NCBI GenBank assembly: GCA_049970635.1 | Contig: JBMFMO010000001.1 | Coordinates: 1 to 40,594 of the forward strand | DNA: 40,594 bases | Reading direction: 5' to 3' | Origin: Minisyncoccia bacterium | GTDB lineage: Bacteria > Patescibacteriota > Minisyncoccia > UBA6257 > HR35 | Shown here: positions 5,696 through 34,540 of the stretch, in pieces | How the letters are laid out: each line of letters starts with the position of its first letter | Numbering within the stretch: position 1 is the stretch's first letter | Notes under the pieces: generated by a model | The model's database searches: none | What the model was told of the DNA's origin: nothing | Seen by the model: the letters and a program-made list of their open reading frames with translations, nothing else | Made by a program: the position numbers and the translations under genes

Positions 5696-6333
5696 AAATT
5701 ATACCTGCTATAAATACTAGAAGTTTTGATGAGGCTAAAGAAAGGATAAATTTATTAAAAGATTTGACAAAAGATTTTCATATAGATATTTCTTCAATTG
5801 ATTTTTCAAATTATGAAACTTGGCAAAATCCTAAAGAAATTGATAAATTAGACGACGATTTAAAACTTCATCTGCATTTAATGATAAGATTAAAACCACA
5901 AGAAATTTTAAAATGGGATAACAAAAGAATTAAATCTTTTATCTTGCATTTAGAAGGAACAAATTTACCAGATGCTTTATTAAAATTTTCTAAAAAAACT
6001 AAAAAAAGTATATTTGTTGCATGGAGCCCTAAGATAGAAAAAGAATTTATTGAAAGATATATAAAATTTGTAGATGGAATTTTAGTTTTAGGAGTTGAGC
6101 CTGGAAAATCTGGACAAAAAATTTTGGAAGATACATTTGAAAGAATAAAAATAGCAAAAAATTTTTTAAATAATAAACAAAAACTAATAGTAGATGGAGG
6201 AATTAATATGGAAAACATCAAAGATATAATAAAGCTTAATGTTGATATTATAGTTATAGGATCAGCAATATTTGAGGGAAATAACCCAAAAGAAAACTAT
6301 TTAAAGTTTTTAAAAGCCGCTGATGAACGCTGA
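5692..6333 (+). CDS. rpe: Ribulose-phosphate 3-epimerase family protein
   Basis: 213 aa. IIPAI, HIDIS, LHLHLM, GVEPGKSGQKI and VDGGIN..VIGSAIF match the Rpe barrel signature positions. The sequence is divergent. Confidence 0.65.
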   Translation: MKIIPAINTRSFDEAKERINLLKDLTKDFHIDISSIDFSNYETWQNPKEIDKLDDDLKLHLHLMIRLKPQEILKWDNKRIKSFILHLEGTNLPDALLKFSKKTKKSIFVAWSPKIEKEFIERYIKFVDGILVLGVEPGKSGQKILEDTFERIKIAKNFLNNKQKLIVDGGINMENIKDIIKLNVDIIVIGSAIFEGNNPKENYLKFLKAADER

Positions 6334-6362
6334 TAAATAATGAACCACGGATTTACGCTGAT
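6318..6362 (+). repeat. Phased word array: CGCTGAT/CACGGAT x4, starting inside the rpe 3' end
   Basis: Word starts at 6318, 6328, 6346, 6356 (spacing 10, 18, 10). The rpe stop TGA (6331-6333) lies inside the second word. Confidence 0.8.
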
Positions 6363-6367
6363 ATTAT

Positions 6368-9784: not shown

Positions 9785-11599
9785 TTATGTTTGTTGTTGT
9801 CCATAAAATTGTTGACCTATTTGTGAAATGATTGATGAAAGTTCTTTTATTTTATTATCAATCTCATCAGGATCATTGCTTCTATTTTTTATATCTTCTA
9901 ATTCCTTAATCTTATCTTCAATTGTCTTAACTAAATCTTCCGATATTTTATCTTTATAATCATTTAATATCTTTCTTGTCTGATAAATAATATTATCTGC
10001 CTGATTTTTTGCTTCTGCCAATCTTCTTTTTCTTAAATCTTCTTCTGCATGCATTTCTGCTTCTTTTTTCATCCTTTCTATCTCTTCTTTTGAAAGATTT
10101 GTTGATCCCTCAATTCTCACAGATTGTGTTTTACCAGTTGCCTTATCTTTTGCAGTAACAGTTAATATTCCATTAACATCAATATCAAATGTAACTTCAA
10201 TCTGTGGAACTCCTCTTGGAGCTGGTGGTATTCCATCTAAAATAAATCTTGCTAGTGTTTTATTATCATCTGCTATTGGTCTTTCTCCTTGGACAACATG
10301 AATTTCTACTGATGTTTGGTTATCTGCTGCAGTTGTAAATATTTCTGTCTTAGAATATGGGATCGGTGTATTTTTAGGAATCATAGGGTGAGCAATATTT
10401 CCTAATGTTTCAATAGATAATGTTAATGGTGTTACATCTAAAAGCAAAACTTCTCTAACCTCTCCTTGTAATATTCCTGCTTGAATTGCTGCTCCTATTG
10501 CTACAACTTCATCTGGGTTTATATCTTTTCTTGGTTCTTTTCCAAAATAATCTTTCACCATTTTTTGAATTAATGGCATTCTTGTTTGTCCTCCAACTAA
10601 AATGATCTCATCAATATCTTTTGGTGTTAATCCTATCTCTTTCAAAGTTTTATCAACTATCTCCATTGATCTTTCTACAAAATGTTTTGTTAAATTTTCT
10701 AATTGTGCTCTTGTAAGTTTAAAGTATAAATGCTTTGGCTGGCCTTCATAAGAAGTTATAAATGGAAGATTAATTTCTGTTTCATATAAAGTAGAAAGTT
10801 CTTGTTTTGCTTTTTCTGCTGCTTCTTTTAATCTTTGTAATGCTAAAGGATCTTTGCTTAAATCTATTCCTTCTTGTTTTTTATATTCTTCTATTAAAAA
10901 TTTAATAATCTCTTGATCAAAATCGTCTCCACCCAAAAATGTATCTCCACCTATCCCTTTTGTTTCTATAACATTATCTCCTATTTCTAAAACAGATACA
11001 TCAAATGTTCCGCCACCAAAATCATAAACTAAAATTTTTTGATTAACATTTTTATCTAATCCATATGCTAATGCTGCTGCTGTTGGCTCTGGTAATATTC
11101 TTCTAACATTAAATCCTGCTATTTCTCCTGCTGCTTTTGTTGCTGCTCTTTGTGAATCATTAAAATATGCTGGTACTGTTATAACTGCATCTGTTATTTT
11201 TTCTCCCAATTTTTGTTCAACATCTAATTTTATCTTTTGTAAAATCATAGCAGAAATTTCTTCTGGCCTATACCATTTATCTCCCATCTTAACTTCAACT
11301 CCTCCATTTGCAGATTCTCTTATTTCATATGGCAAAATTTTTTTAGCTTTTTGAACTTCTTCATCACTATATCTTCTACCAATCAATCTTTTTATAGAAA
11401 ATATTGTATTTTGAGGATTTGTTATAGCTTGTCTTTTTGCTAAAATCCCAACAATTCTTTCACCAGATTTTGAAATAGCAACAACAGAAGGAGTTAATCT
11501 CCCTCCTTCAGGATTTTCAATAACACGGGGAGTTCCAGCTTCAACAATCGCAGCAACTGAATTTGTTGTTCCTAAATCTATTCCTAAAATCTTTTGCAT
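9785..11599 (-). CDS. dnaK: Molecular chaperone DnaK (Hsp70)
   Basis: 604 aa. [19 protein letters not shown], and a full substrate-binding domain and lid. Confidence 0.95.
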
Positions 11600-11617
11600 T
11601 TTATTATTAATAATTAT

Positions 11618-11872
11618 TTAATTAATGTTAAAAAATTCTTTTAAATAATAATTATTTAATATTTCCTTATAATGGGATTGTTGGGAAATTTTTCTGTTAA
11701 CAGGAGATAAAAATTTTTTGAAGATAAAAATTTTGTTTAACAAAAAATTGTTATCCTTATAGGCTAAAAATCCCTTTATTTTCCTATATTTTTCAACATT
11801 ACAAAACCTTTCTTCAAAATTTTTTATTCTTCTATTTGTTGTTCCTAAACCTATTCCTAAAATCTTTTGCAT
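11618..11872 (-). pseudogene. Duplicated dnaK 5' end (first 13 codons) fused to an 84-codon open frame spanning an AT-rich insert
   Basis: 11834-11872 matches 11561-11599 at 38/39 nt. The ATG at 11872 sits 1 nt after the grpE stop. The frame stays open to 11618, 19 nt before the real dnaK ATG. Confidence 0.6.
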
Positions 11873-11873
11873 C

Positions 11874-12386
11874 TTAATGAACAATTACTTTTACTTTTGC
11901 TGGTCTTAATAATTGATCATTTAATTTATATCCTTTAGCCAAAACTTCTATTATTAAATTATCATCACTTTTATCGCAATTTTCTTTATCGCATTTTTTT
12001 GTTGAAATAGCTTCATGAAACTTTGGATCAAATTTTTCTCCCTTTGGATCTATAACTTCTAATCCATATCTTTTTAAAATCCCCCAAATTTGTGCTTGTA
12101 TCATATAATATCCTTTTCCTAAATTTTTTTCCTTTTCATCATCACTTAAAGAATTTGTAGCCAAATCTAAACTATCCAAAACTGGCAATAATTCTAAAAT
12201 CAATCCAGCATTTGCAAAATATATTATATTTTTCATCTTTTCCTCAGCCTCTTTTTGATAATTTAAATGTTCAACCTTCATCTTTTTTAAATTAGCAATC
12301 AAATCCTCATTTTCTTTCTTTAATTTTTCAATTGTCTCTTGCAATTCTTTTACTGTTTCGTCTTCTGTTGGTAATTTTTCATCCAT
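11874..12386 (-). CDS. grpE: Nucleotide exchange factor GrpE
   Basis: 170 aa. An N-terminal coiled-coil is followed by a C-terminal beta domain (FDPKFHEAIS...RPAKVKV). Confidence 0.85.
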   Translation of the reverse strand: MDEKLPTEDETVKELQETIEKLKKENEDLIANLKKMKVEHLNYQKEAEEKMKNIIYFANAGLILELLPVLDSLDLATNSLSDDEKEKNLGKGYYMIQAQIWGILKRYGLEVIDPKGEKFDPKFHEAISTKKCDKENCDKSDDNLIIEVLAKGYKLNDQLLRPAKVKVIVH

Positions 12387-13478: not shown

Positions 13479-13507
13479 ATTATAACAAATTGTCACCCTC
13501 TTGTCAA
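13479..13507 (-). promoter_or_regulatory. Consensus sigma70 promoter TTGACA-17-TGtTATAAT for the hsp20-hrcA-grpE-dnaK operon
   Basis: The minus strand reads TTGACA (13507-13502), 17 nt, TATAAT (13484-13479), with TG at the extended -10 position. Confidence 0.7.
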
Positions 13508-13516
13508 GGGTGCTAA
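13490..13516 (-). promoter_or_regulatory. CIRCE-like HrcA operator TTAGCACCC-N9-GGGTGACAA
   Basis: Compare the CIRCE consensus TTAGCACTC-N9-GAGTGCTAA. The arms pair at 7 of 9 positions. The -35 hexamer lies inside the N9 spacer. The operator overlaps the stop codon of the upstream 402-aa gene. Confidence 0.7.
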
Positions 13517-14721: not shown

Positions 14722-15155
14722 TTTGTTAATTCTTCAATTAATTTTAATATTTCATCTGCTACAAAGATTATTATAAAACCTAAAAATGTATATAATAAAG
14801 CTTTTTTCCCTTTTTCAATTAATTCTTTTTTCATTGGAGAAAATATAAAAAATCCTGCTACAACAACTATCATTAAAACAAATATTATTGCTGAAAAATA
14901 TTTTAATGCATTTGTTACTTTTTCTACACAAGCAGTTATTTTACCAAGCGCAGTATCTTTGCCTTCTGCACATTTTGGTATAGCTGAAGGTGCTATTTGT
15001 TTATAAAAATATCCCCATGCTTCTGGTTTTAGAGGATTTAAATAATCTTGATTTTGTTGTCCATTTGGAGGATTTAAATAATCTTGATTTTGTTGTCCAA
15101 ATGTAAAAAATATAGGTATTAAAATTAAAGATAAAATAACTATTATCTTTTTCAT
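14718..15155 (-). CDS. TrbC/VirB2-like (T4SS-pilin-like) small membrane protein with a 12-aa tandem repeat
   Basis: 145 aa. Signal peptide, GQQNQDYLNP x2, then TM - MKKELIEKGKK loop - TM. ATGA overlaps on both sides. Confidence 0.55.
   Translation of the reverse strand: MKKIIVILSLILIPIFFTFGQQNQDYLNPPNGQQNQDYLNPLKPEAWGYFYKQIAPSAIPKCAEGKDTALGKITACVEKVTNALKYFSAIIFVLMIVVVAGFFIFSPMKKELIEKGKKALLYTFLGFIIIFVADEILKLIEELTK
15032..15103. repeat. 36-bp tandem repeat x2 inside the 145-aa gene
   Basis: Units 15032-15067 and 15068-15103 are identical at 34/36 nt. They are in frame and encode GQQNQDYLNP(P/L). Confidence 0.9.
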
Positions 15156-15505: not shown

Positions 15506-16704
15506 TTTTTAAAAAAATTATAAATTTGTGATTGTAACAATCTTTTAATATCTTCTTTCCTATAAATCCAATCTTCAATATCCTTTTTTAATGCATCTTC
15601 TAAATATTTCTTATTAAACTCTAAAAACATATCACTATTTAAAATACTTTGGAAAACAATTTTTCCTTCTTTATCTAATTTATCATAGAAAGATTTTTTT
15701 GCTGGAATAAGATTTACTGATTTTACAAATTTTTCATATTTTTTATCTAATGATTCTATAAACATCCAAGCAAATTTTGTTTTACCTTGTTTTGGAACAG
15801 CAAAGAAATATCCATAGAAATAATTTAAACTTCTTGGATTATCTTTAAATTTTGGTAATAATGCTATATCAAAATTCAATCTATTATTTTTCTTTAAAAT
15901 ATCATTCTTTTTAGAATAAAAATCTATAATCATTGCAACATTTCCATTAGAAAATTCTTCTAATTGATCATCCATGTTTGGGTTCCAAGAATAATATTCT
16001 GAATCTTTATTAGCAAATTGAGTATAGAAATCTAATGTTTTATAAAATGAAGGTGGTAACTGATAGTCTCTGTTTAATAATTTATGAAAGACTAAAAATA
16101 TCTTTGAGAAAGGTTTTATATTATTTGCTGTTCCTAATGCTATTGGGCTTGTTTTTATCTTATCAAATTCTAATATCCTAACTTGTTTAATTAAATTTTG
16201 CATATCTTCAAATGTTTTTGGTGGTTCTATATAACCAGCAGAATATAATAGATCTTTGTTCCAAAATAAAACTAATGGATCATATGTTACTGGATAAGCT
16301 AAGATTTTATTATTAAAAATCTTTGAAATAATATCTGGATAATCATCTAAATTAATATTTTTCCCTTTATATTGAGAAAAGATTTTAATATTATCAATTA
16401 AGAATTCTGAATCTACATAAACAACATCAGGAATATTTCCTGCACTAATTTCAGAGAAAAGAGAATTTCTAATCTCATCAATACTTTTTTCTACAACTTT
16501 TATCTTTAAGCAATATTTTTTAAGCTCATTAGAAACCTCAGGATATTTATAATTTTTAAAAGGAGACCAAACTATTATTGTTTGATTGTAGCATGGTAAT
16601 TCTTGTTTTTTCTTTTGAGATGAAACTGATATTGAAATAGCAATAATTAAAATAAATAGAAAGAAAGCTGCTCCTCCGATTATAAATAATTTTTTGTCTT
16701 TCAT
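15502..16704 (-). CDS. Membrane-anchored extracellular solute-binding protein (ABC SBP family 1-like); no permease or ATPase nearby
   Basis: 400 aa. N-terminal anchor helix. MalE-like features: IIVWSP..., AYPVTYDPLVLFWNKDLL, PKTFEDM. Confidence 0.65.
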   Translation of the reverse strand: MKDKKLFIIGGAAFFLFILIIAISISVSSQKKKQELPCYNQTIIVWSPFKNYKYPEVSNELKKYCLKIKVVEKSIDEIRNSLFSEISAGNIPDVVYVDSEFLIDNIKIFSQYKGKNINLDDYPDIISKIFNNKILAYPVTYDPLVLFWNKDLLYSAGYIEPPKTFEDMQNLIKQVRILEFDKIKTSPIALGTANNIKPFSKIFLVFHKLLNRDYQLPPSFYKTLDFYTQFANKDSEYYSWNPNMDDQLEEFSNGNVAMIIDFYSKKNDILKKNNRLNFDIALLPKFKDNPRSLNYFYGYFFAVPKQGKTKFAWMFIESLDKKYEKFVKSVNLIPAKKSFYDKLDKEGKIVFQSILNSDMFLEFNKKYLEDALKKDIEDWIYRKEDIKRLLQSQIYNFFKK

Positions 16705-17219
16705 TTTTTAATAACTGCTAAATAATAATTATCATTAAATTTTTTTTGAAACTCCATCTCCTTCCCTTTAACTTCAAAATAAGTTTTTAAAATATCAAAA
16801 CTTATTGGATTTCCAAAGATAAAAGGAATTTTTTTGTTTGGTTCTAAGATAATCAAATATCCACCATCTTTTAAAATTCTTAATCCTTCTTCTAAAATTT
16901 TTTCATATTCTTCATTCTGGAAAAGTAATTGGCTTATAAAAACTACATCAAAACTATTTTCATCATATGGTAATTTTTTAACATTCGATTTTAAATATAC
17001 AACATTTTTATATCCAAATAAATCTATTAATTCTTTTGTCTCATTTATAGCATCTTCTAAAATATCTATAGCATAAATTTTCCCTTCTGCTCCAACTTTT
17101 TCAGCTAATAAAACTGTAAAATATCCACCACCGCAACCAAATTCAGCAATCTTATCACCTTTTTTTATAAAGAAATTTTGAGTTAAAATATCTATTACTT
17201 CTTTTGGTTTTATTACCAT
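16701..17219 (-). CDS. Class I SAM-dependent methyltransferase
   Basis: 172 aa. Motif I is IAEFGCGGGYF. An acidic residue follows after beta2 (YAIDI), and motif IV-like is DVVFIS. Confidence 0.8.
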   Translation of the reverse strand: MVIKPKEVIDILTQNFFIKKGDKIAEFGCGGGYFTVLLAEKVGAEGKIYAIDILEDAINETKELIDLFGYKNVVYLKSNVKKLPYDENSFDVVFISQLLFQNEEYEKILEEGLRILKDGGYLIILEPNKKIPFIFGNPISFDILKTYFEVKGKEMEFQKKFNDNYYLAVIKK

Positions 17220-17811: not shown

Positions 17812-18656
17812 TATAAAATCTCTTTTATCTTATCTTTGTATCTATTAAATAAACTTAATTTTAGTTTTCCAATGTATTCTTCTCCTATTGAATATTTTGC
17901 CCTAAAAGAGATTGTTAATTCATAAAAATCTTGTGAAATATTAATATTATCTTCAACCCCACATCTTACAATTTGTTGATTTTCTTCTTTAAACTTTTCT
18001 AAAAAATTATTAAGATCTTTAAGGAATTCATCAAAATCAACATTCTTATCAAGCTTTATTTTGAAAGAAAATTTTTTTGTTTCTCTGCTTAAATTAATTA
18101 TTGATAATATTTGGCTGTTTGGGAAAAATATTAAATTTCCTTCTTTATCTTTTAAAACAATATATCTTAAATTAATTTTTATAACCTTTCCTGTAAATTG
18201 TGGAGTATTGTTTATCATTATCAATTCTCCTTTTCTTATTTGATCTTCAAATAATAAAAGCCATCCTTTTATAATATCTTGAATTGTACTTTGAAAAATA
18301 ACAACAAAAGCTGCACCTATAAATCCTAAACCAGTAATAAATGGAATTAATTTTATTTCAAATTCTCTTAATACCAAAAAGAAAAATATTAAAAAAATTA
18401 TTACCTTTAAAATAGAATCCAAAACAGAAGAAAGCGTTGATATCCTTTCTGCCTGTACCTCTTCTCCTTTAATATTTTTTATCTTAACTCCAATCTTTAC
18501 AGATTTATAAATTATCTTTCTGAATAAAATATAGATTATAAGAAGAATAATAAAATAAATCCCTATATTTAAAAATTTTTCCCTGCTTTCTTCCAAAAAT
18601 ATCCTAAAAAATTTAAGATATAAATTTAAGCTTTTTTCCATTTTAAAATTATACAA
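17811..18656 (-). CDS. Small-conductance mechanosensitive channel (MscS family)
   Basis: 281 aa. N-terminal TM helices, then the MscS beta domain (IIKGWLLLFEDQIRKGELI...GKVIKINLRYIVLKDKEGNLIFFPNSQI). Confidence 0.8.
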   Translation of the reverse strand: MYNFKMEKSLNLYLKFFRIFLEESREKFLNIGIYFIILLIIYILFRKIIYKSVKIGVKIKNIKGEEVQAERISTLSSVLDSILKVIIFLIFFFLVLREFEIKLIPFITGLGFIGAAFVVIFQSTIQDIIKGWLLLFEDQIRKGELIMINNTPQFTGKVIKINLRYIVLKDKEGNLIFFPNSQILSIINLSRETKKFSFKIKLDKNVDFDEFLKDLNNFLEKFKEENQQIVRCGVEDNINISQDFYELTISFRAKYSIGEEYIGKLKLSLFNRYKDKIKEIL

Positions 18657-19260
18657 AAATCTTATTTTGCTTACTAATTTTAATTGCCTTATTTAAAATT
18701 TTAATTGTTTCATCATATGTTTTTCTATCAACAAAATATGGTGTTCCATCTTTACCACCATGAGTAAATGTATATCTTGCAGGATCTATCTTTGATGTAT
18801 CCTTATTATAAATTAATTCTCCTACTAAAGAAATCGCCCTTATTGTTTTTGGACCAACTCCTTCTATTAAAAGTAAATCTTCTATTGTTTTTGGTTCTAA
18901 AAATGATGCTTTATAGATTGTTTTTTTCAATCTTTTTATATCAAATTTTTCTTCCAAGACAGGATGATACTTAAATTCTATATCTGGTAAAAATAGATTT
19001 TTTATCTTTTTATCATCTTGTTTCTTGTTTACTATATTTAGATCTTTTATAAGTTCATATGGTTGATTTACCATTTCAACAATAAGATTTTTATTCTCTA
19101 AACTATCTTTATGTGTAAGATTTAAAACTCTTTTAAATTTAATCTCTGAAACTATTCCTGAATGTGGTTCTAATGTCATATCTTTTACATTTTTTGAAAA
19201 CCAATGGTATCTTCTTGCCAATCCATAACTTGTATTCATTCCTTGCTGTATTACTCCCAT
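18649..19260 (-). CDS. DUF763 family protein, C-terminal part (contains a helix-hairpin-helix)
   Basis: 203 aa, starting GVIQQGMN..ARRYHW. HhH-like LIEGVGPKTIRAISLVGELI. It continues the upstream ORF in another frame. Confidence 0.6.
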   Translation of the reverse strand: MGVIQQGMNTSYGLARRYHWFSKNVKDMTLEPHSGIVSEIKFKRVLNLTHKDSLENKNLIVEMVNQPYELIKDLNIVNKKQDDKKIKNLFLPDIEFKYHPVLEEKFDIKRLKKTIYKASFLEPKTIEDLLLIEGVGPKTIRAISLVGELIYNKDTSKIDPARYTFTHGGKDGTPYFVDRKTYDETIKILNKAIKISKQNKIFV

Positions 19261-19715
19261 ATTTTATCTTTATAAAATATAAAAGCATGGTGGTAAATAT
19301 TAAATCCATCTTGAATTAATGAATTATCTACTTTTGCTACTAATCTTGAAATTTTTATATAGTTTTTTGGATCAAAACCAATTTTTTCTCCAAATATAAC
19401 TAATTCTTCTGGGGTTTTTCTTGATGTTTTTCCCTTTCCTCCACAGATATAAATTCCTAAATTTTTTTCTTTTAATGCTTGCTTTAATGCTGCTGTTGTT
19501 ACAACTGTCAAGCCGCTACTGTTCCAATCAAATGCTAATGCACAACCAAAGGCTTGAAACCAGTAAGGATCCGATAATTTTTTAATAAACTCTTCTGCAC
19601 CAAATTCTTCTATTATTATTTCAGCCATAATACCAGAAAGTTTTTTCATTCTTTCAAAGAGCCATTTAGGACATCTTCCTTCATCTAAAGTAAAAGTTGC
19701 TATTCCTGTTCTCAT
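19251..19715 (-). CDS. DUF763 family protein, N-terminal part
   Basis: 154 aa. RTGIATFTLDEGRCPKWLFERMKKL...YWFQAFGCALAFDWNSSGLT is the conserved DUF763 N-terminus as I recall it. It ends 10 nt inside the next ORF. Confidence 0.6.
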   Translation of the reverse strand: MRTGIATFTLDEGRCPKWLFERMKKLSGIMAEIIIEEFGAEEFIKKLSDPYWFQAFGCALAFDWNSSGLTVVTTAALKQALKEKNLGIYICGGKGKTSRKTPEELVIFGEKIGFDPKNYIKISRLVAKVDNSLIQDGFNIYHHAFIFYKDKIWE

Positions 19716-20515
19716 TATAAATAACCTATTTCTTTTAATATATCCTTATTCTCCCATTCCCATAATTTTTTACAGCTTAAAAATGCTTCAAAATCCTCTT
19801 CATGATTTTCAAATTCTTTTAACTCCCATTCACCAATTATCTCTCCAAATTCGTGTTCGCAATTTGGATCACCACCAATTATTTCATCTCCCATCCTTCT
19901 TAACAATTTTTTTGCTCCACATTTATTACAAATCCTTACTTGAGATATTCTTAGTATGTATCTTTTCTCGATATCCTTAGGAATCAATATTTTATTTCCA
20001 CTTTTATCGATTAACCATGTTTCATCTTTTAATGCATACATATAAGCTGCTGTTTGTAATGCATAATCATTATAAACAGATTTTGATGTTTTAATATCTA
20101 TAATAGAAAATTTACCATCTAATTCAGCAACTATATCGAATGTTCCTACATATCTATGCTCTCTATGTAAAACTTTTTTTTCAAGCCATTCTTTTTGAGA
20201 ATAAAAATAATAACTTTTTAAAAATTCATCAAATGATTTTTTTATCCCAATATATTCATCTGGAATTGTAACTTCTCTTCCTGAAATAATTGATTCTAAA
20301 ATTTCATGAATATATCTCCCTTCATCTCCTGCTTTTGATAATTTGCTTTGGGCTACTGAATAACTTTCTTGATTAGCATAAAATTTATAAAGCCCAGGTT
20401 TGTTTTTTATCTTACAAATAGCAGTAACACGAGGATACCAAGCTCCATTTAAATAATATCCATTTTCTCTTAAAAATTTTTCTATCTTAAAATGATTTAT
20501 TTTTTCCCCATTCAT
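19715..20515 (-). CDS. PD-(D/E)XK superfamily nuclease with an inserted Cys-rich zinc-ribbon-like segment
   Basis: 266 aa. GTFDIVAELDGKFSIIDIKTSK gives D...D-x-K, followed by QTAAY. CNKCGAKK...CEHEF lies near the C-terminus. Confidence 0.6.
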   Translation of the reverse strand: MNGEKINHFKIEKFLRENGYYLNGAWYPRVTAICKIKNKPGLYKFYANQESYSVAQSKLSKAGDEGRYIHEILESIISGREVTIPDEYIGIKKSFDEFLKSYYFYSQKEWLEKKVLHREHRYVGTFDIVAELDGKFSIIDIKTSKSVYNDYALQTAAYMYALKDETWLIDKSGNKILIPKDIEKRYILRISQVRICNKCGAKKLLRRMGDEIIGGDPNCEHEFGEIIGEWELKEFENHEEDFEAFLSCKKLWEWENKDILKEIGYL

Positions 20516-29981: not shown

Positions 29982-30524
29982 CTAATTAACCTTAATAATT
30001 TTTCCTTTTCCTGTTTTTTTAGATATTTTTACTCCTTTATTTGTCTTTTCAAAAATTTTTTTGAAATTTTCTGAAGGCTTAAAAAATGAATATCCTATAC
30101 TTAAACTTGATTTAAACTTTTCAATCTTCCCATCTATATATTCTTTAATTTCTTTTATCTTTTTAGGAAAGTTTTTTTTATTAACATTTAATGCTAATAT
30201 CAAAAACTCATCACCTCCCCATCTACATATAATATCTTCTTTCCTAAATTTTCTTTTAAGATTTGATGCAACAGTTTTTATTAATTTATCTCCCTTATTG
30301 TATCCAAAGTTATCATTAACATATTTTAGATTATCAATATCAGCAAGGATTATACAATGAAAAATTTTTCTCTTTTCCCTATTTTTTTTACTAAATAAAT
30401 TAAGTTCATTTGCTCTCCATTTAAACCCTCTTCTATTTAAACATTTTGTAAGTTCATCATAAAAAGCATAATCTATTAATTTTTTTATTGTATCAATTAT
30501 TTCATTTATCTTTTTCATCCTCAA
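29982..30524 (-). CDS. Stand-alone GGDEF-domain protein (putative diguanylate cyclase) with an RxxD I-site
   Basis: 180 aa. DELTKCLNRRGF, ADIDNLKYVND, and RKEDIICRWGGDEFLIL, in which the RxxD lies 5 residues before GGDEF. No sensor domain is present. Confidence 0.75.
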   Translation of the reverse strand: MRMKKINEIIDTIKKLIDYAFYDELTKCLNRRGFKWRANELNLFSKKNREKRKIFHCIILADIDNLKYVNDNFGYNKGDKLIKTVASNLKRKFRKEDIICRWGGDEFLILALNVNKKNFPKKIKEIKEYIDGKIEKFKSSLSIGYSFFKPSENFKKIFEKTNKGVKISKKTGKGKIIKVN

Positions 30525-31920
30525 ATTTGATTCCTAATTCATCTAATTGTTCTTTTTCAACCTCAGATGGAATATCCATCATAGGATCTCTTCCTTCACC
30601 TGTCTTTGGAAATGCTATAACCTCTCTTATTGATTCTTCATTTAATAATATCGCCAATAATCTATCTAATCCTAATGCTATTCCACCATGTGGTGGTACT
30701 CCATATTTAAATGCTGTTAACAAATGATTAAATTTTTTAATAACATCTTCTCTTTTATTCCCCATAGTTTCAAAAACTTTAATTAATAATTCTGGATTAT
30801 AAATCCTTAAACTCCCTCCTCCAATCTCAAAACCATTCAAAACAAGATCATATTGTTCACTTAATAATTCTTCTGGTTTTTCTTTTAAATATTTAATTAA
30901 AATCTCAAAATCTTTTTCTCCATCTTTTGTTTTAGGTTGTGTAAATGGATGATGAACTGCATCCCATCTATTTTCTGATTCTTTCCATTCAAACATAGGA
31001 AAATCAATTATAAAGGCAAAAGAAAGATTATCTTTATCTTTTTCCTTTCTCAAATCTGGTTTATCAGAACCATATTTTTCAATTGCAGATTCATATTTGA
31101 TCTTTGGGAATGGTATATTTTCTATCTTTTTTTCTGGAAAGACGTTTTTTACTAAATCTATTATTAGTTCCTCAATTAAATTTAAAATATCATCTCTATC
31201 AATAAAACTCATCTCTAAATCTAATTGGGTAAATTCTGGCTGCCTATCTCCTCTTGGATCCTCATCCCTAAAACATCTTGCTATTTGAAAATATTTTTCA
31301 AAACCAGAAATCATTAAAAGTTGTTTATATTGTTGAGGAGATTGTGGTAATGCATAAAATTTTCCTTTATAAATTCTCGATGGAACCAAATAATCTCTTG
31401 CTCCTTCTGGGGTTGATTTTGATAATATTGGAGTTTCAATCTCTACAAACCCTCTTTTATTTAACCAATTTCTAATAAAAAATATAGCTTCATTTCTTTT
31501 AATCAAATTCTTTTGTAATCTTTTTCTCTTTAAATCAATATACCTATATTTCAATCTTAACTCTTCATTAATTTCATACCCATCTTTATCAATTGGGATT
31601 GGTAATGTTTCTGCAGAATTTAAAATTTCTAATTCTTTTACTAAAAGTTCTATTTCTCCTGTTTCAATATTTTTATTAATTAATTTTGGCTCTCTTCTTT
31701 TAATAATTCCTTTAATTCTTACAACATATTCTGGTTTTAAATCATTTGCAATATCAAAATATTTTGAACTACTATCAACTAAACATTGTAATATTCCGCT
31801 TCTGTCTCTCAAATCAATAAAAATTATTTTTCCATGCTTTCTTAAAGAATTAACCCAACCAAAAATCTCAACCTCTTTATCAATATTATTTAATGTTTCT
31901 ATTATCTCTATTTTTTTCAT
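30502..31920 (-). CDS. aspS: Aspartate--tRNA ligase, short bacterial-type form
   Basis: 472 aa. N-terminal OB fold, QSPQQYKQLLM, FRDEDPRGDRQPEFTQLD, GGIALGLDRL. It is too short to hold the large insertion domain of typical ~590-aa bacterial AspRS. Confidence 0.85.
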   Translation of the reverse strand: MKKIEIIETLNNIDKEVEIFGWVNSLRKHGKIIFIDLRDRSGILQCLVDSSSKYFDIANDLKPEYVVRIKGIIKRREPKLINKNIETGEIELLVKELEILNSAETLPIPIDKDGYEINEELRLKYRYIDLKRKRLQKNLIKRNEAIFFIRNWLNKRGFVEIETPILSKSTPEGARDYLVPSRIYKGKFYALPQSPQQYKQLLMISGFEKYFQIARCFRDEDPRGDRQPEFTQLDLEMSFIDRDDILNLIEELIIDLVKNVFPEKKIENIPFPKIKYESAIEKYGSDKPDLRKEKDKDNLSFAFIIDFPMFEWKESENRWDAVHHPFTQPKTKDGEKDFEILIKYLKEKPEELLSEQYDLVLNGFEIGGGSLRIYNPELLIKVFETMGNKREDVIKKFNHLLTAFKYGVPPHGGIALGLDRLLAILLNEESIREVIAFPKTGEGRDPMMDIPSEVEKEQLDELGIKFEDEKDK

Positions 31921-32711
31921 TTTATTATAAGTGCTTTATTCAAATCAGTTCTCCAATATTTAATTTTAAATGATTTTAATAATTCTATAACTTCTTTATT
32001 TGGATGACCATATTTATTTTTGCCAACTTGAATTATTGCTAAAATAGGGCTTGTTATCTTTAAAAATTTTTCATCTAAAGAATATTTTGAGCCATGATGT
32101 GGGATCAACAAATAATCAACATCTAAAAAATCTTTGAATCTTTTAATTAAATATTCTTCAGCTTTTTTATCTATATCTCCTGTTAAAAGATAGGATCTAT
32201 TATCTTTATTAATTTTTAAAACTATAGAATTTTCATTATCTTTATTAAAGATATTAGGTTCAGGATTTAAAACAAAGATCTTTTCATAATTAGATTCTAT
32301 AAAATCTCCTTTTTCAAGTGTTATTATTGGAATATTTTTGTCTTTTATATATTTTAAAAGCTGCAAATATCCTGAATCCTGAGAATTTAATGGAGTAATA
32401 AAAACAATTCTTATCTTAAATCTATCTAATATATCAAATGCTCCACCATAATGATCTTTATCTGGATGTGAAATAATTAAAAAATCTATCCTTCTATCAT
32501 AAAATGGCAAAATCTTGTTTATTTCAGATATTGTATTAAATCCATATGGCCCAGTATCATATAAAATTTTAAATCTTGGATTGTATATTAAAACACTACT
32601 TCCTTCTCCAACATCAAAAAACGAAACAAGGCTTCCTCTTTTTGAAAAATCAAATATCAGATAAAAAACTCCTATATTAATACAAAGTAAAATTAAAATC
32701 AATTTTTTCAT
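31917..32711 (-). CDS. ComEC-type metallo-beta-lactamase domain protein (separate ORF)
   Basis: 264 aa. N-terminal anchor helix, FFDVGEGSS, ISHPDKDHYGG, LIPHHGS. 35-nt overlap with the upstream ComEC membrane part. Confidence 0.75.
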   Translation of the reverse strand: MKKLILILLCINIGVFYLIFDFSKRGSLVSFFDVGEGSSVLIYNPRFKILYDTGPYGFNTISEINKILPFYDRRIDFLIISHPDKDHYGGAFDILDRFKIRIVFITPLNSQDSGYLQLLKYIKDKNIPIITLEKGDFIESNYEKIFVLNPEPNIFNKDNENSIVLKINKDNRSYLLTGDIDKKAEEYLIKRFKDFLDVDYLLIPHHGSKYSLDEKFLKITSPILAIIQVGKNKYGHPNKEVIELLKSFKIKYWRTDLNKALIIK

Positions 32712-33951: not shown

Positions 33952-33954
33952 TTG

Positions 33955-34026
33955 AGCCAGAGGTGGGATTCGAACCCACAACCTGCCGCTTACAAGGCGG
34001 CTGCTCTGCCATTGAGCTACTCTGGC
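33955..34026 (-). tRNA. tRNA-Thr(UGU)
   Basis: The reverse complement reads GCCAGAG TA GCTC AATGGCA GAGC A GCCGC CTTGTAA GCGGC AGGTT GTGGG TTCGAAT CCCAC CTCTGGC T. Confidence 0.9.
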
Positions 34027-34036
34027 TTATTAAATA

Positions 34037-34065
34037 ATTATAAGATAAAAGAATAAAGAGTTCAA
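34037..34065 (-). promoter_or_regulatory. Sigma70 promoter TTGAAC-17-TATAAT for tRNA-Thr
   Basis: -35 at 34065-34060, which lies in the unique insert. -10 at 34042-34037, which lies in the duplicated segment. The tRNA 5' end is 10 nt downstream of the -10. Confidence 0.55.
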
Positions 34066-34309
34066 GGAAATTAGAAATTTTCTATTTATAACCCAAGGTT
34101 CAAAAATTATTTATTTTCCTATATTTTTTATGATCTATCTTTAAATAGGATTTGGAAAAAAATTTTGTGAATATAAAAATAAAGTAAAGTTTTTCCATTA
34201 ATAGAAGAAGATCTTTTAAAAAAAATTTTAATCTCTTATCTTAAAAATAGAGTATATGAAAAAATATTGAATTTTCCTATATTTTTTAATATTAAAAATT
34301 TTTTAATAA

Positions 34310-34364
34310 AAGGCGGCTGCTCTGCCATTGAGCTACTCTGGCTTATTAAATAATTATAAGATAA
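34310..34364 (-). pseudogene. Duplicated tRNA-Thr 5' half (nt 1-33, 34310-34342) plus 22 nt of its upstream flank, including the TATAAT
   Basis: A 55-nt exact copy of 33994-34048. The identity ends inside the anticodon. Confidence 0.85.
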
Positions 34365-34444
34365 CACGGACTTAACACGGACAAGAACGGACTTAACGCA
34401 GACAGACGCCGACTTAACACGGACATACACGGACCAAAACGGAC
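34364..34444 (+). repeat. Phased word array: ACACGGAC and variants x8
   Basis: ACGGAC-type cores start at 34366, 34377, 34387, 34398, 34408, 34419, 34429, 34439 (spacing 11, 10, 11, 10, 11, 10, 10). Units 4 and 5 are ACGCAGAC and ACGCCGAC. Confidence 0.9.
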
Positions 34445-34540
34445 ATAAAAATGATATATCTGAACAATCAGTGTCAAGCCCAAACTGTCTGTGTTAAGTC
34501 TAGTATTTTTTAAAAATTAATTCGACCTTATTTAATTATA

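Follow-up and report, generated by a model that had tools for sequence, protein, structure and literature searches.

How does a short open reading frame (ORF) that begins like DnaK come to lie between grpE and an intact dnaK gene in a heat-shock operon? The question is raised by a DNA stretch of 40,594 nt, the whole of a 40.6-kb contig of an ultra-small Parcubacteria/Minisyncoccia bacterium of the candidate phyla radiation (CPR) and hereafter called the window, in which the first codons of dnaK occur twice around a very AT-rich insert. Our analysis favours, with a probability of roughly 0.6, a mobile cassette that borrows its start codon from dnaK and that entered this gene with an in-place duplication of the target. 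The elements of the locus, all on the minus strand, are the following:

12386-11874, minus strand: grpE (170 aa; matches PF01025)

11834-11876, minus strand: A1, the upstream repeat copy, TAA-G-ATG plus dnaK codons 2-13, directly after grpE

11872-11621, minus strand, with the stop TAA at 11620-11618: the 84-codon ORF (P0001) between grpE and dnaK

11604-11833, minus strand: the insert at dnaK, 230 nt, made up of 71 sense codons, the stop TAA and a further 14 nt

11561-11603, minus strand: A2, the downstream repeat copy, TAA-A-ATG plus codons 2-13, which opens the intact dnaK

11599-9785, minus strand: dnaK, intact, 604 aa

The repeated segment measures 43 nt and comprises the grpE stop codon TAA, one further nucleotide and dnaK codons 1-13. 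The grpE stop (11876-11874) forms the first three nucleotides of A1, the two copies are identical at 41 of 43 positions, and their starts are spaced 273 nt (91 codons) apart. An initial annotation made from the letters of this DNA had described a repeat of 39 nt (38 of 39 identical) around an insert; the anatomy holds, with the longer repeat given here. Likewise, the 84-codon frame that it had traced from the upstream ATG is present, composed of 13 DnaK-head codons joined in frame to 71 insert codons, while the gap between its stop and the dnaK ATG (11599) is 18 nt instead of 19 nt. The ORF and dnaK share a frame, with one TAA between them, an agreement that has a prior of one in three and requires no special explanation. 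The insert has a GC content of 17.5-17.8%, compared with 26.8% for the window. No pair of terminal inverted repeats joins its two ends, the longest arms being internal. The possibility that the insert derives from dnaK codons 14-91 by tandem duplication and divergence was discarded, as no similarity was detected, and a structured RNA, intron or riboswitch was rejected because Rfam returned only sub-threshold noise and the RNA fold was not beyond that of shuffled sequences (z -0.59). A promoter within the insert was also dismissed: the only candidate, TTAACA-17-AATAAT, is weak and has its end 3 nt ahead of the ATG, and promoter-like sites are as frequent as expected from shuffles.

The origin of the duplication can be read from relatives. 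In L022-L027 (GrpE 90% identical) and in L028 and L029 (76%), the junction reads grpE-CAT-TAA-A-ATG-dnaK, in all of them as CATTAAAATG and free of any insert, which supports the earlier proposal that the ancestral junction, grpE-TAA-N-ATG, persists in the upstream copy. The insert itself was not present in L022-L030, and both window copies align by BLAST to the single copy of the relatives. Furthermore, A1 and A2 agree in synonymous states that are specific to the window (CAA, GGA and ACA, as against CCA, GGT and ACT in L022); the repeat was therefore copied from the lineage's own dnaK and not brought in by the insert. The two differences between the copies, TAAA to TAAG and GAT to GGT (D8G), are both derived and both in A1, the copy freed from encoding DnaK, while A2 retains the ancestral states. 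Taken together, an insertion with target duplication at dnaK is very probable. Since window and L022 DNA are about 82-85% identical, the insertions described here are recent and differ between lineages.

The question of whether the insert encodes a protein was approached through its frame. The other five frames of the insert contain 5-14 stops, and the probability of 71 stop-free insert codons is 0.0003 in mononucleotide shuffles, a value also obtained analytically, and 0.0011 in dinucleotide-preserving shuffles, in agreement with the initial annotation, which had judged such a run unexpected by chance. When codon frequencies from 49 genes of the window served as the model, the frame of the ORF scored a log-likelihood of +0.11 bits per codon, and frames 1 and 2 scored -0.70 and -1.41; the reference values were 0.44 ± 0.14 for real gene windows and -1.28 ± 0.41 for off-frame windows, and none of 300 off-frame gene windows reached the score of the ORF. 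When neutral drift to 59% and 52% amino acid identity was simulated, the frame stayed stop-free in only 2% and 0.9% of the runs, respectively. The product is basic, with an isoelectric point of 10 (9.5-10.5 across its family), and Phe and Tyr make up about 20% of its residues. For nuclease domains (LAGLIDADG, GIY-YIG, HNH, PD-(D/E)XK), only noise was obtained in Pfam and PDB profile searches (E up to 10) and in NCBIfam and PHROGs (E up to 1).

Homologues were sought by scanning 1.84 billion representative proteins in full with HMMER and by a profile search, which together recovered three intact copies on three contigs of one distant NCBI Minisyncoccia metagenome-assembled genome (MAG; locus tags ACP5JU_00645, ACP5JU_02040 and ACP5JU_02385, the last two being MGC8981773.1 and MGC8981707.1):

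P0122, 81 aa: a MAVKIGIDLGTAN head joined to RRRKDFEEKF...

P0124, 87 aa: a MAKIVKQLELGIINN head joined to RRRKDFEKRF...

P0123, 67 aa: without such a head

Any two of the four copies are 49-67% identical, and their core contains no indels. The nearest to the window copy is P0124 (67%); identity among the three ACP5JU copies is only 52-57%. The blocks KKFLSPVNRK and YK(E/Q)ILNN are kept among copies that stand behind different heads, and P0123 and the window ORF have a common C-terminus, FNIN followed by the stop. The initial annotation had suggested that in-frame stops in relatives with the insert would speak against selection on the frame; the outcome supports the frame, as P0122, P0123 and P0124, the only known relatives of the insert placed behind a start codon, are all open. 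A longer protein containing the 71 codons was not found in the full HMMER scan, a first word-based protein search returned only the query itself, and a profile-guided scan of GTDB representative genomes, IMG/VR and JGI metagenome contigs gave no family members.

The window contains a further, damaged member of the family, inserted at a tRNA gene:

11778-11793, minus strand: the 16-mer AAAAATATAGGAAAAT of the dnaK insert, coding (E)KYRKI

34307-34364, minus strand: upstream copy of the tRNA-Thr duplication, 22 nt of 5' flank with a TATAAT box plus tRNA nt 1-33/36

34049-34306, minus strand: the insert at tRNA-Thr, 258 nt, a decayed and rearranged member of the dnaK insert family

33954-34048, minus strand: downstream copy of the duplication with the intact tRNA-Thr(UGU), the tRNA at 34026-33954

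The 16-mer occurs exactly three times in the 40.6 kb, the dnaK insert contributing one occurrence and the insert at tRNA-Thr two, with none expected from 100 shuffles. The two inserts can be aligned collinearly only when oriented alike (z 4.3; 2 of 500 shuffles), the tRNA-Thr insert corresponding to nt 19-175 of the dnaK insert followed by nt 40-113. Remnants of the ORF are recognizable as NIKKYRKIQYFFIY and DHKKYRKINNF, among 6-7 stops per frame and indels. The tRNA-Thr duplication spans 55-58 nt and ends in the anticodon loop, and the relatives L031 and L032 have a single copy at this site, which is thus empty. This only copy behind a tRNA gene, never translated, is the one full of stops and frameshifts, and copies that are intact behind start codons and decayed behind a tRNA are the pattern expected of a selected frame that uses a borrowed start. 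We therefore consider the 71-codon frame to be probably a selected coding sequence, and the ORF may be translated into a functional protein. The earlier idea of a small gene arising from an insertion is not supported as regards a birth at dnaK, since the frame is carried by a discrete cassette that also occurs at further loci and in a second genome.

A comparable insertion was found at dnaJ in relatives. In L022 and L023 (7253-7629), an 82-nt duplication of the dnaJ start (81 of 82 identical) surrounds a 213-nt insert; the duplicated segment is composed of 7 nt of the upstream gene, the stop codon of that gene, 2 nt and 23 codons. The insert leaves a DnaJ-headed ORF of 35 codons, whose stop follows 12 codons of insert sequence and is about 190 nt short of dnaJ. 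The two independent JGI assemblies and samples agree exactly in this structure, and the site is empty in the window and in L028. No similarity was detected between the L022 dnaJ insert and the inserts at dnaK or tRNA-Thr, and no gene-start duplications besides those of L022 and L023 were found among the 45 fetched loci. The duplications vary in length (43, 55-58 and 82 nt), while the 5' ends of all of them are situated within a few nucleotides of the stop codon of the upstream gene.

The heads of the intact copies bear on how a target may be chosen. The window ORF, P0122 and P0124 join at N-RR(I/R)K behind the heads MQKILGIGLGTTN, MAVKIGIDLGTAN and MAKIVKQLELGIINN, respectively, and in all three the head closes with ...LG(T/I)(T/A/I)N immediately ahead of RR(I/R)K; the target at tRNA-Thr has an unrelated sequence. 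At dnaK, the insertion point lies in the DNA for the conserved Hsp70 phosphate-1 motif GIDLGTTN, and DnaK starts in the fetched loci read GIDLGTT(N/F) in 23 of 23 cases. The GTAN of the P0122 head is the MreB form of the phosphate-1 motif of the actin fold. The P0124 head (MAKI..LELGIINN) looks like a drifted DnaK head when compared with L028 and L030. MreB sequences reading DLGTANTLVY have been described (bioRxiv 10.1101/2024.09.04.611326). Short-peptide searches of the heads against the PDB gave no matches. Head drift is unequal, amounting to 2 nt in the window and being heavy in P0124, which suggests that the same site was hit independently in lineages distant from each other. A tentative extension, which we regard as possible but doubtful, is a sequence-directed "start-hijacking" mini-element that inserts in frame after the phosphate-1 Asn codon (DLGT-x-N) of actin-fold ATPase genes; its targets, as judged from the heads, would be dnaK in the window and, in the ACP5JU genome, a gene with an MreB-type head (GTAN) and one with a drifted DnaK-like head. 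If so, the 40-60-nt duplication would rebuild the start of the host gene, and the element would gain a promoter, a start and first codons for a 71-residue protein without expression signals of its own. As a separate observation, the sequence TTAGGAACAGCAAAT at 16123-16137 (minus strand), which codes LGTAN, is one mismatch from the dnaK insertion-point sequence and is unoccupied; it is located about 189 codons into a solute-binding-protein gene.

The expression signals available to the ORF are those of the operon in which it is situated, whose remaining elements are listed below:

13479-13516, minus strand: operon promoter, TTGACA-17-TATAAT, a 12 of 12 match, TG-extended

13442-13029, minus strand: hsp20, first gene of the heat-shock operon

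13032-12379, minus strand: hrcA, heat-shock operon

8853-7825, minus strand: dnaJ, heat-shock operon

The promoter is interlocked with a CIRCE-like inverted repeat and lies 5' of the order hsp20-hrcA-grpE-[ORF]-dnaK; a membrane protein of 309 aa is encoded between dnaK and dnaJ. No terminator-like sites were found from this promoter to dnaK, including 11600-11880, so that the ORF should be co-transcribed with the HrcA/CIRCE operon and translated from the former dnaK start. A Shine-Dalgarno (SD)-like motif within 20 nt of the start was identified in only 5 of 49 window genes, and A/T runs precede the starts. The new dnaK leader, AATAATAAA-ATG, resembles these ordinary start contexts; consequently, dnaK can probably initiate on its own.

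The sequence of events that we propose begins with a mobile cassette of about 230 bp, very AT-rich, devoid of a start codon and consisting almost entirely of one 71-codon frame, that inserted after codon 13 of dnaK. In doing so it duplicated 43 bp of target DNA, beginning with the grpE stop and ending with dnaK codon 13, so that the downstream copy restores a complete dnaK and the upstream copy, with its grpE-coupled ATG and 13 codons, heads the cassette frame. A basic cassette protein of about 8-10 kDa would then be made from the heat-shock operon signals of the host, while dnaK would start independently on its AT-rich, SD-less leader, 18 nt past the cassette stop. Movement of the cassette may, as for other members of the long-target-duplication class, involve staggered breaks with fill-in or template switching.

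Several observations weigh against this account. Pfam scans of 30 window ORFs revealed no transposase, integrase or reverse transcriptase in the 40 kb, and unrelated non-coding inserts share the duplication footprint, so that the duplication step is probably the work of the host or of trans-acting functions and not of the ORF. The ends of the tRNA-Thr insert differ from the 3' end of the dnaK insert, and the termini of the element are therefore not cleanly defined. Intact family members number only four, from two genomes; the ACP5JU copies are known as proteins, and the contig of the window was found in a single assembly only. Regarding the product, the codon score of the ORF falls within the lowest 3% of real gene windows, the 71-residue protein matched no Pfam, NCBIfam, PHROG or PDB family at the thresholds given above, and two AlphaFold runs gave an unusable model with a predicted local distance difference test (pLDDT) score of 42.

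Part of this evidence could be explained by a generic capture process, in which a host pathway fills staggered breaks or stalled forks with stray DNA, taken up for instance through ComEC, and the ORF is a passenger fragment that happened to land in frame. The dnaJ insert of L022 leaves the same footprint although it is unlike the other two inserts, no mobility gene was found in the window, a comEC gene adjoins the tRNA-Thr site, and published insertions with long target duplications are mostly from naturally competent species (PMC2853133). However, a random passenger does not readily account for three copies that share the 5' end N-RR(I/R)K in frame behind similar heads, for at least two sites in each of two distantly related genomes, or for the failure of the full HMMER scan to find a longer parent protein, and we consider this explanation unlikely. 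A remnant of site-specific or Campbell-type integration, whereby a circle or larger element carrying its own dnaK start left att-like repeats, is far less probable still. In its favour, tRNA genes are classic integration sites, the anticodon loop is where the duplication at tRNA-Thr ends, and insert plus repeat together (273-316 bp) are about the size of a phage attP site; nevertheless, both dnaK copies bear the synonymous states of the window lineage, the duplicated part is the 5' and not the 3' part of each gene, no integrase occurs in the 40 kb, one insert family is present at unrelated targets (dnaK, tRNA-Thr), and the duplications differ in length (43, 55-58 and 82 nt). The least credible of all is a mis-joining of strain variants, or an open frame arising by accident. 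The single assembly would be in keeping with it, whereas the copies differ at two positions and are each joined to unique sequence, the 43-nt repeat is shorter than typical reads, and the analogous dnaJ structure was assembled identically from the independent samples L022 and L023. Moreover, ORFs combining head and insert occur in an unrelated NCBI MAG, the chance of an open frame was put at 0.001 at most, and the homologues are open as well.

The remaining alternative assigns the frame to dnaK itself: it would stay open only to pass ribosomes from grpE to dnaK, or to regulate dnaK, and its amino acid sequence would be irrelevant. The layout invites such a reading, as the ORF runs from the old coupled ATG to just before dnaK and in its frame, and the cassette ends just 14 nt past its own stop. 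The initial annotation had accordingly considered both a re-coupling device and a leader-peptide regulator. On the other hand, KKFLSPVNRK and YK(E/Q)ILNN are preserved behind different heads, and P0123 shares the FNIN ending; this reading is improbable, more so than generic capture. In Escherichia coli and Haloferax volcanii, termination-reinitiation is almost lost when stop and start are about 20 nt apart (PMC10666635). The stop of the ORF and the start of dnaK neither overlap nor lie within a few nucleotides of each other, being 18 nt apart, so that by the rule of these model organisms re-coupling would be at most a side effect. Likewise, the L022 dnaJ insert stops early, and a ribosome relay is thus not a general requirement. 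With SD-like motifs in so few genes and an ordinary dnaK leader besides, re-coupling is an unlikely purpose of the ORF. A role as a leader peptide finds no support either: neither an attenuator-like RNA structure (z -0.59) nor a terminator was found, and the ORF is 84 codons long.

When compared to known systems, the locus is closest to insertion with long target duplication, a class described by Nobusato et al. 2000 and Furuta et al. 2010 (PMC2853133) whose mechanism is unsolved. As in that class, direct repeats of more than 30 bp that are single-copy in insert-free relatives flank the inserts (dnaK, tRNA-Thr and L022 dnaJ), repeat length varies, the insert is poorer in GC than the genome, and no transposase or integrase accompanies the insert, here within the window. 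In contrast, the published cases are kilobase-sized restriction-modification gene complexes, while the present insert consists of 230 bp in the first codons of an essential gene, with a start-less ORF fused to a duplicated head. Long and variable direct repeats (8-514 bp) have also been reported for IS1634 and IS1549 of the IS1634 family (PMC2266710), likewise with no mechanistic model; these elements, however, are 1.5-2 kb in size and possess a DDE transposase and terminal inverted repeats, neither of which the insert has, and no such transposase is present in the window. With homing endonuclease genes, group I introns and inteins, the cassette has in common an insertion point that codes a conserved motif of an essential gene, a homologue apparently at the equivalent point of an MreB-type head, and an ORF in frame with an upstream exon-like piece. 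It differs from them in having no splicing element, nuclease motif or fold beyond shuffles, and in that a duplicated start, and not splicing, makes the host gene whole again. Rickettsia palindromic elements and bacterial miniature inverted-repeat transposable elements are similarly short, multi-copy at unrelated sites, non-autonomous in appearance and tolerated inside essential genes, or at their margins, in a compact genome, but the insert has no palindrome, terminal inverted repeat or short fixed duplication and is read as a separate small protein from the host start instead of as part of a host protein. Integrative elements at tRNA genes resemble the tRNA-Thr site in their direct repeat over part of the tRNA, which here ends in the anticodon loop, and in leaving one copy intact; at this site, unlike in those elements, the 5' half with its promoter-proximal flank is duplicated instead of the 3' half, and the insert is 258 bp long with no integrase. 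A GIY-YIG mini-transposon was ruled out, as no GIY-YIG signal, inverted repeats or 4-bp duplication were detected.

The surroundings of the tRNA-Thr site showed additional features. The junction between the insert and the downstream copy yields TTGAAC-17-TATAAT before the intact tRNA-Thr. Directly 3' of the tRNA-Thr lie a gene for a competence channel of the ComEC type (PF03772; 32677-33981, minus strand) and, as a separate ORF, one for a metallo-beta-lactamase (31917-32711, minus strand), so that uptake machinery adjoins this insertion hot spot. In L031, an extra gene of about 1.1 kb (527-1662), present neither in L032 nor in the window, lies between tRNA-Thr and comEC; its product is N-terminally Cys-rich, with a radical-SAM-like CxxxCxxC motif. 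Upstream of tRNA-Thr, L031 and L032 have rnhA, while the window has a short-word array and RNase J. Such arrays, GC-containing and built of ACACGGAC units or of CGCGGAT/CGCTGAT units, fill intergenic gaps at 34364-34500, 150-235 and 6310-6365, and one of them abuts the upstream copy of the tRNA-Thr duplication at the break of synteny with L031 and L032.

Elsewhere in the window, a TATAAT is positioned 6-9 nt before the ATG of several first genes (389, 3438, 6424, 16701-17219, 19715-20515, 20536 and 30502-31920), which suggests leaderless or near-leaderless mRNAs. Three tandem genes resembling TrbC/type IV secretion system pilins are situated 5' of hsp20, and one of them, of 145 aa, contains a 36-nt in-frame tandem duplication (35 of 36 identical) at 15028-15099. 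Finally, DUF763 at 18649-19715 (minus strand) is represented by two adjoining, overlapping ORFs, one of 154 aa covering profile positions 1-152 and one of 203 aa covering 154-319, corresponding to a split gene or a frameshift.

CPR bacteria have almost no intergenic DNA, and how new DNA and genes enter their operons is puzzling. The dnaK locus represents one route of entry, in which a long target duplication permits non-lethal insertion into an essential, tightly coupled gene and the newcomer simultaneously receives a ready promoter, a start codon and an N-terminus. A conserved, multi-copy frame that is decayed where it is untranslatable marks the cassette as a candidate selfish gene, very small in size and belonging to a new family, and it adds a short, ORF-bearing case to the class of long-target-duplication insertions, documented mainly for restriction-modification genes. 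It would also provide a natural example of how the gene of a small protein may reach high, heat-shock-regulated expression.

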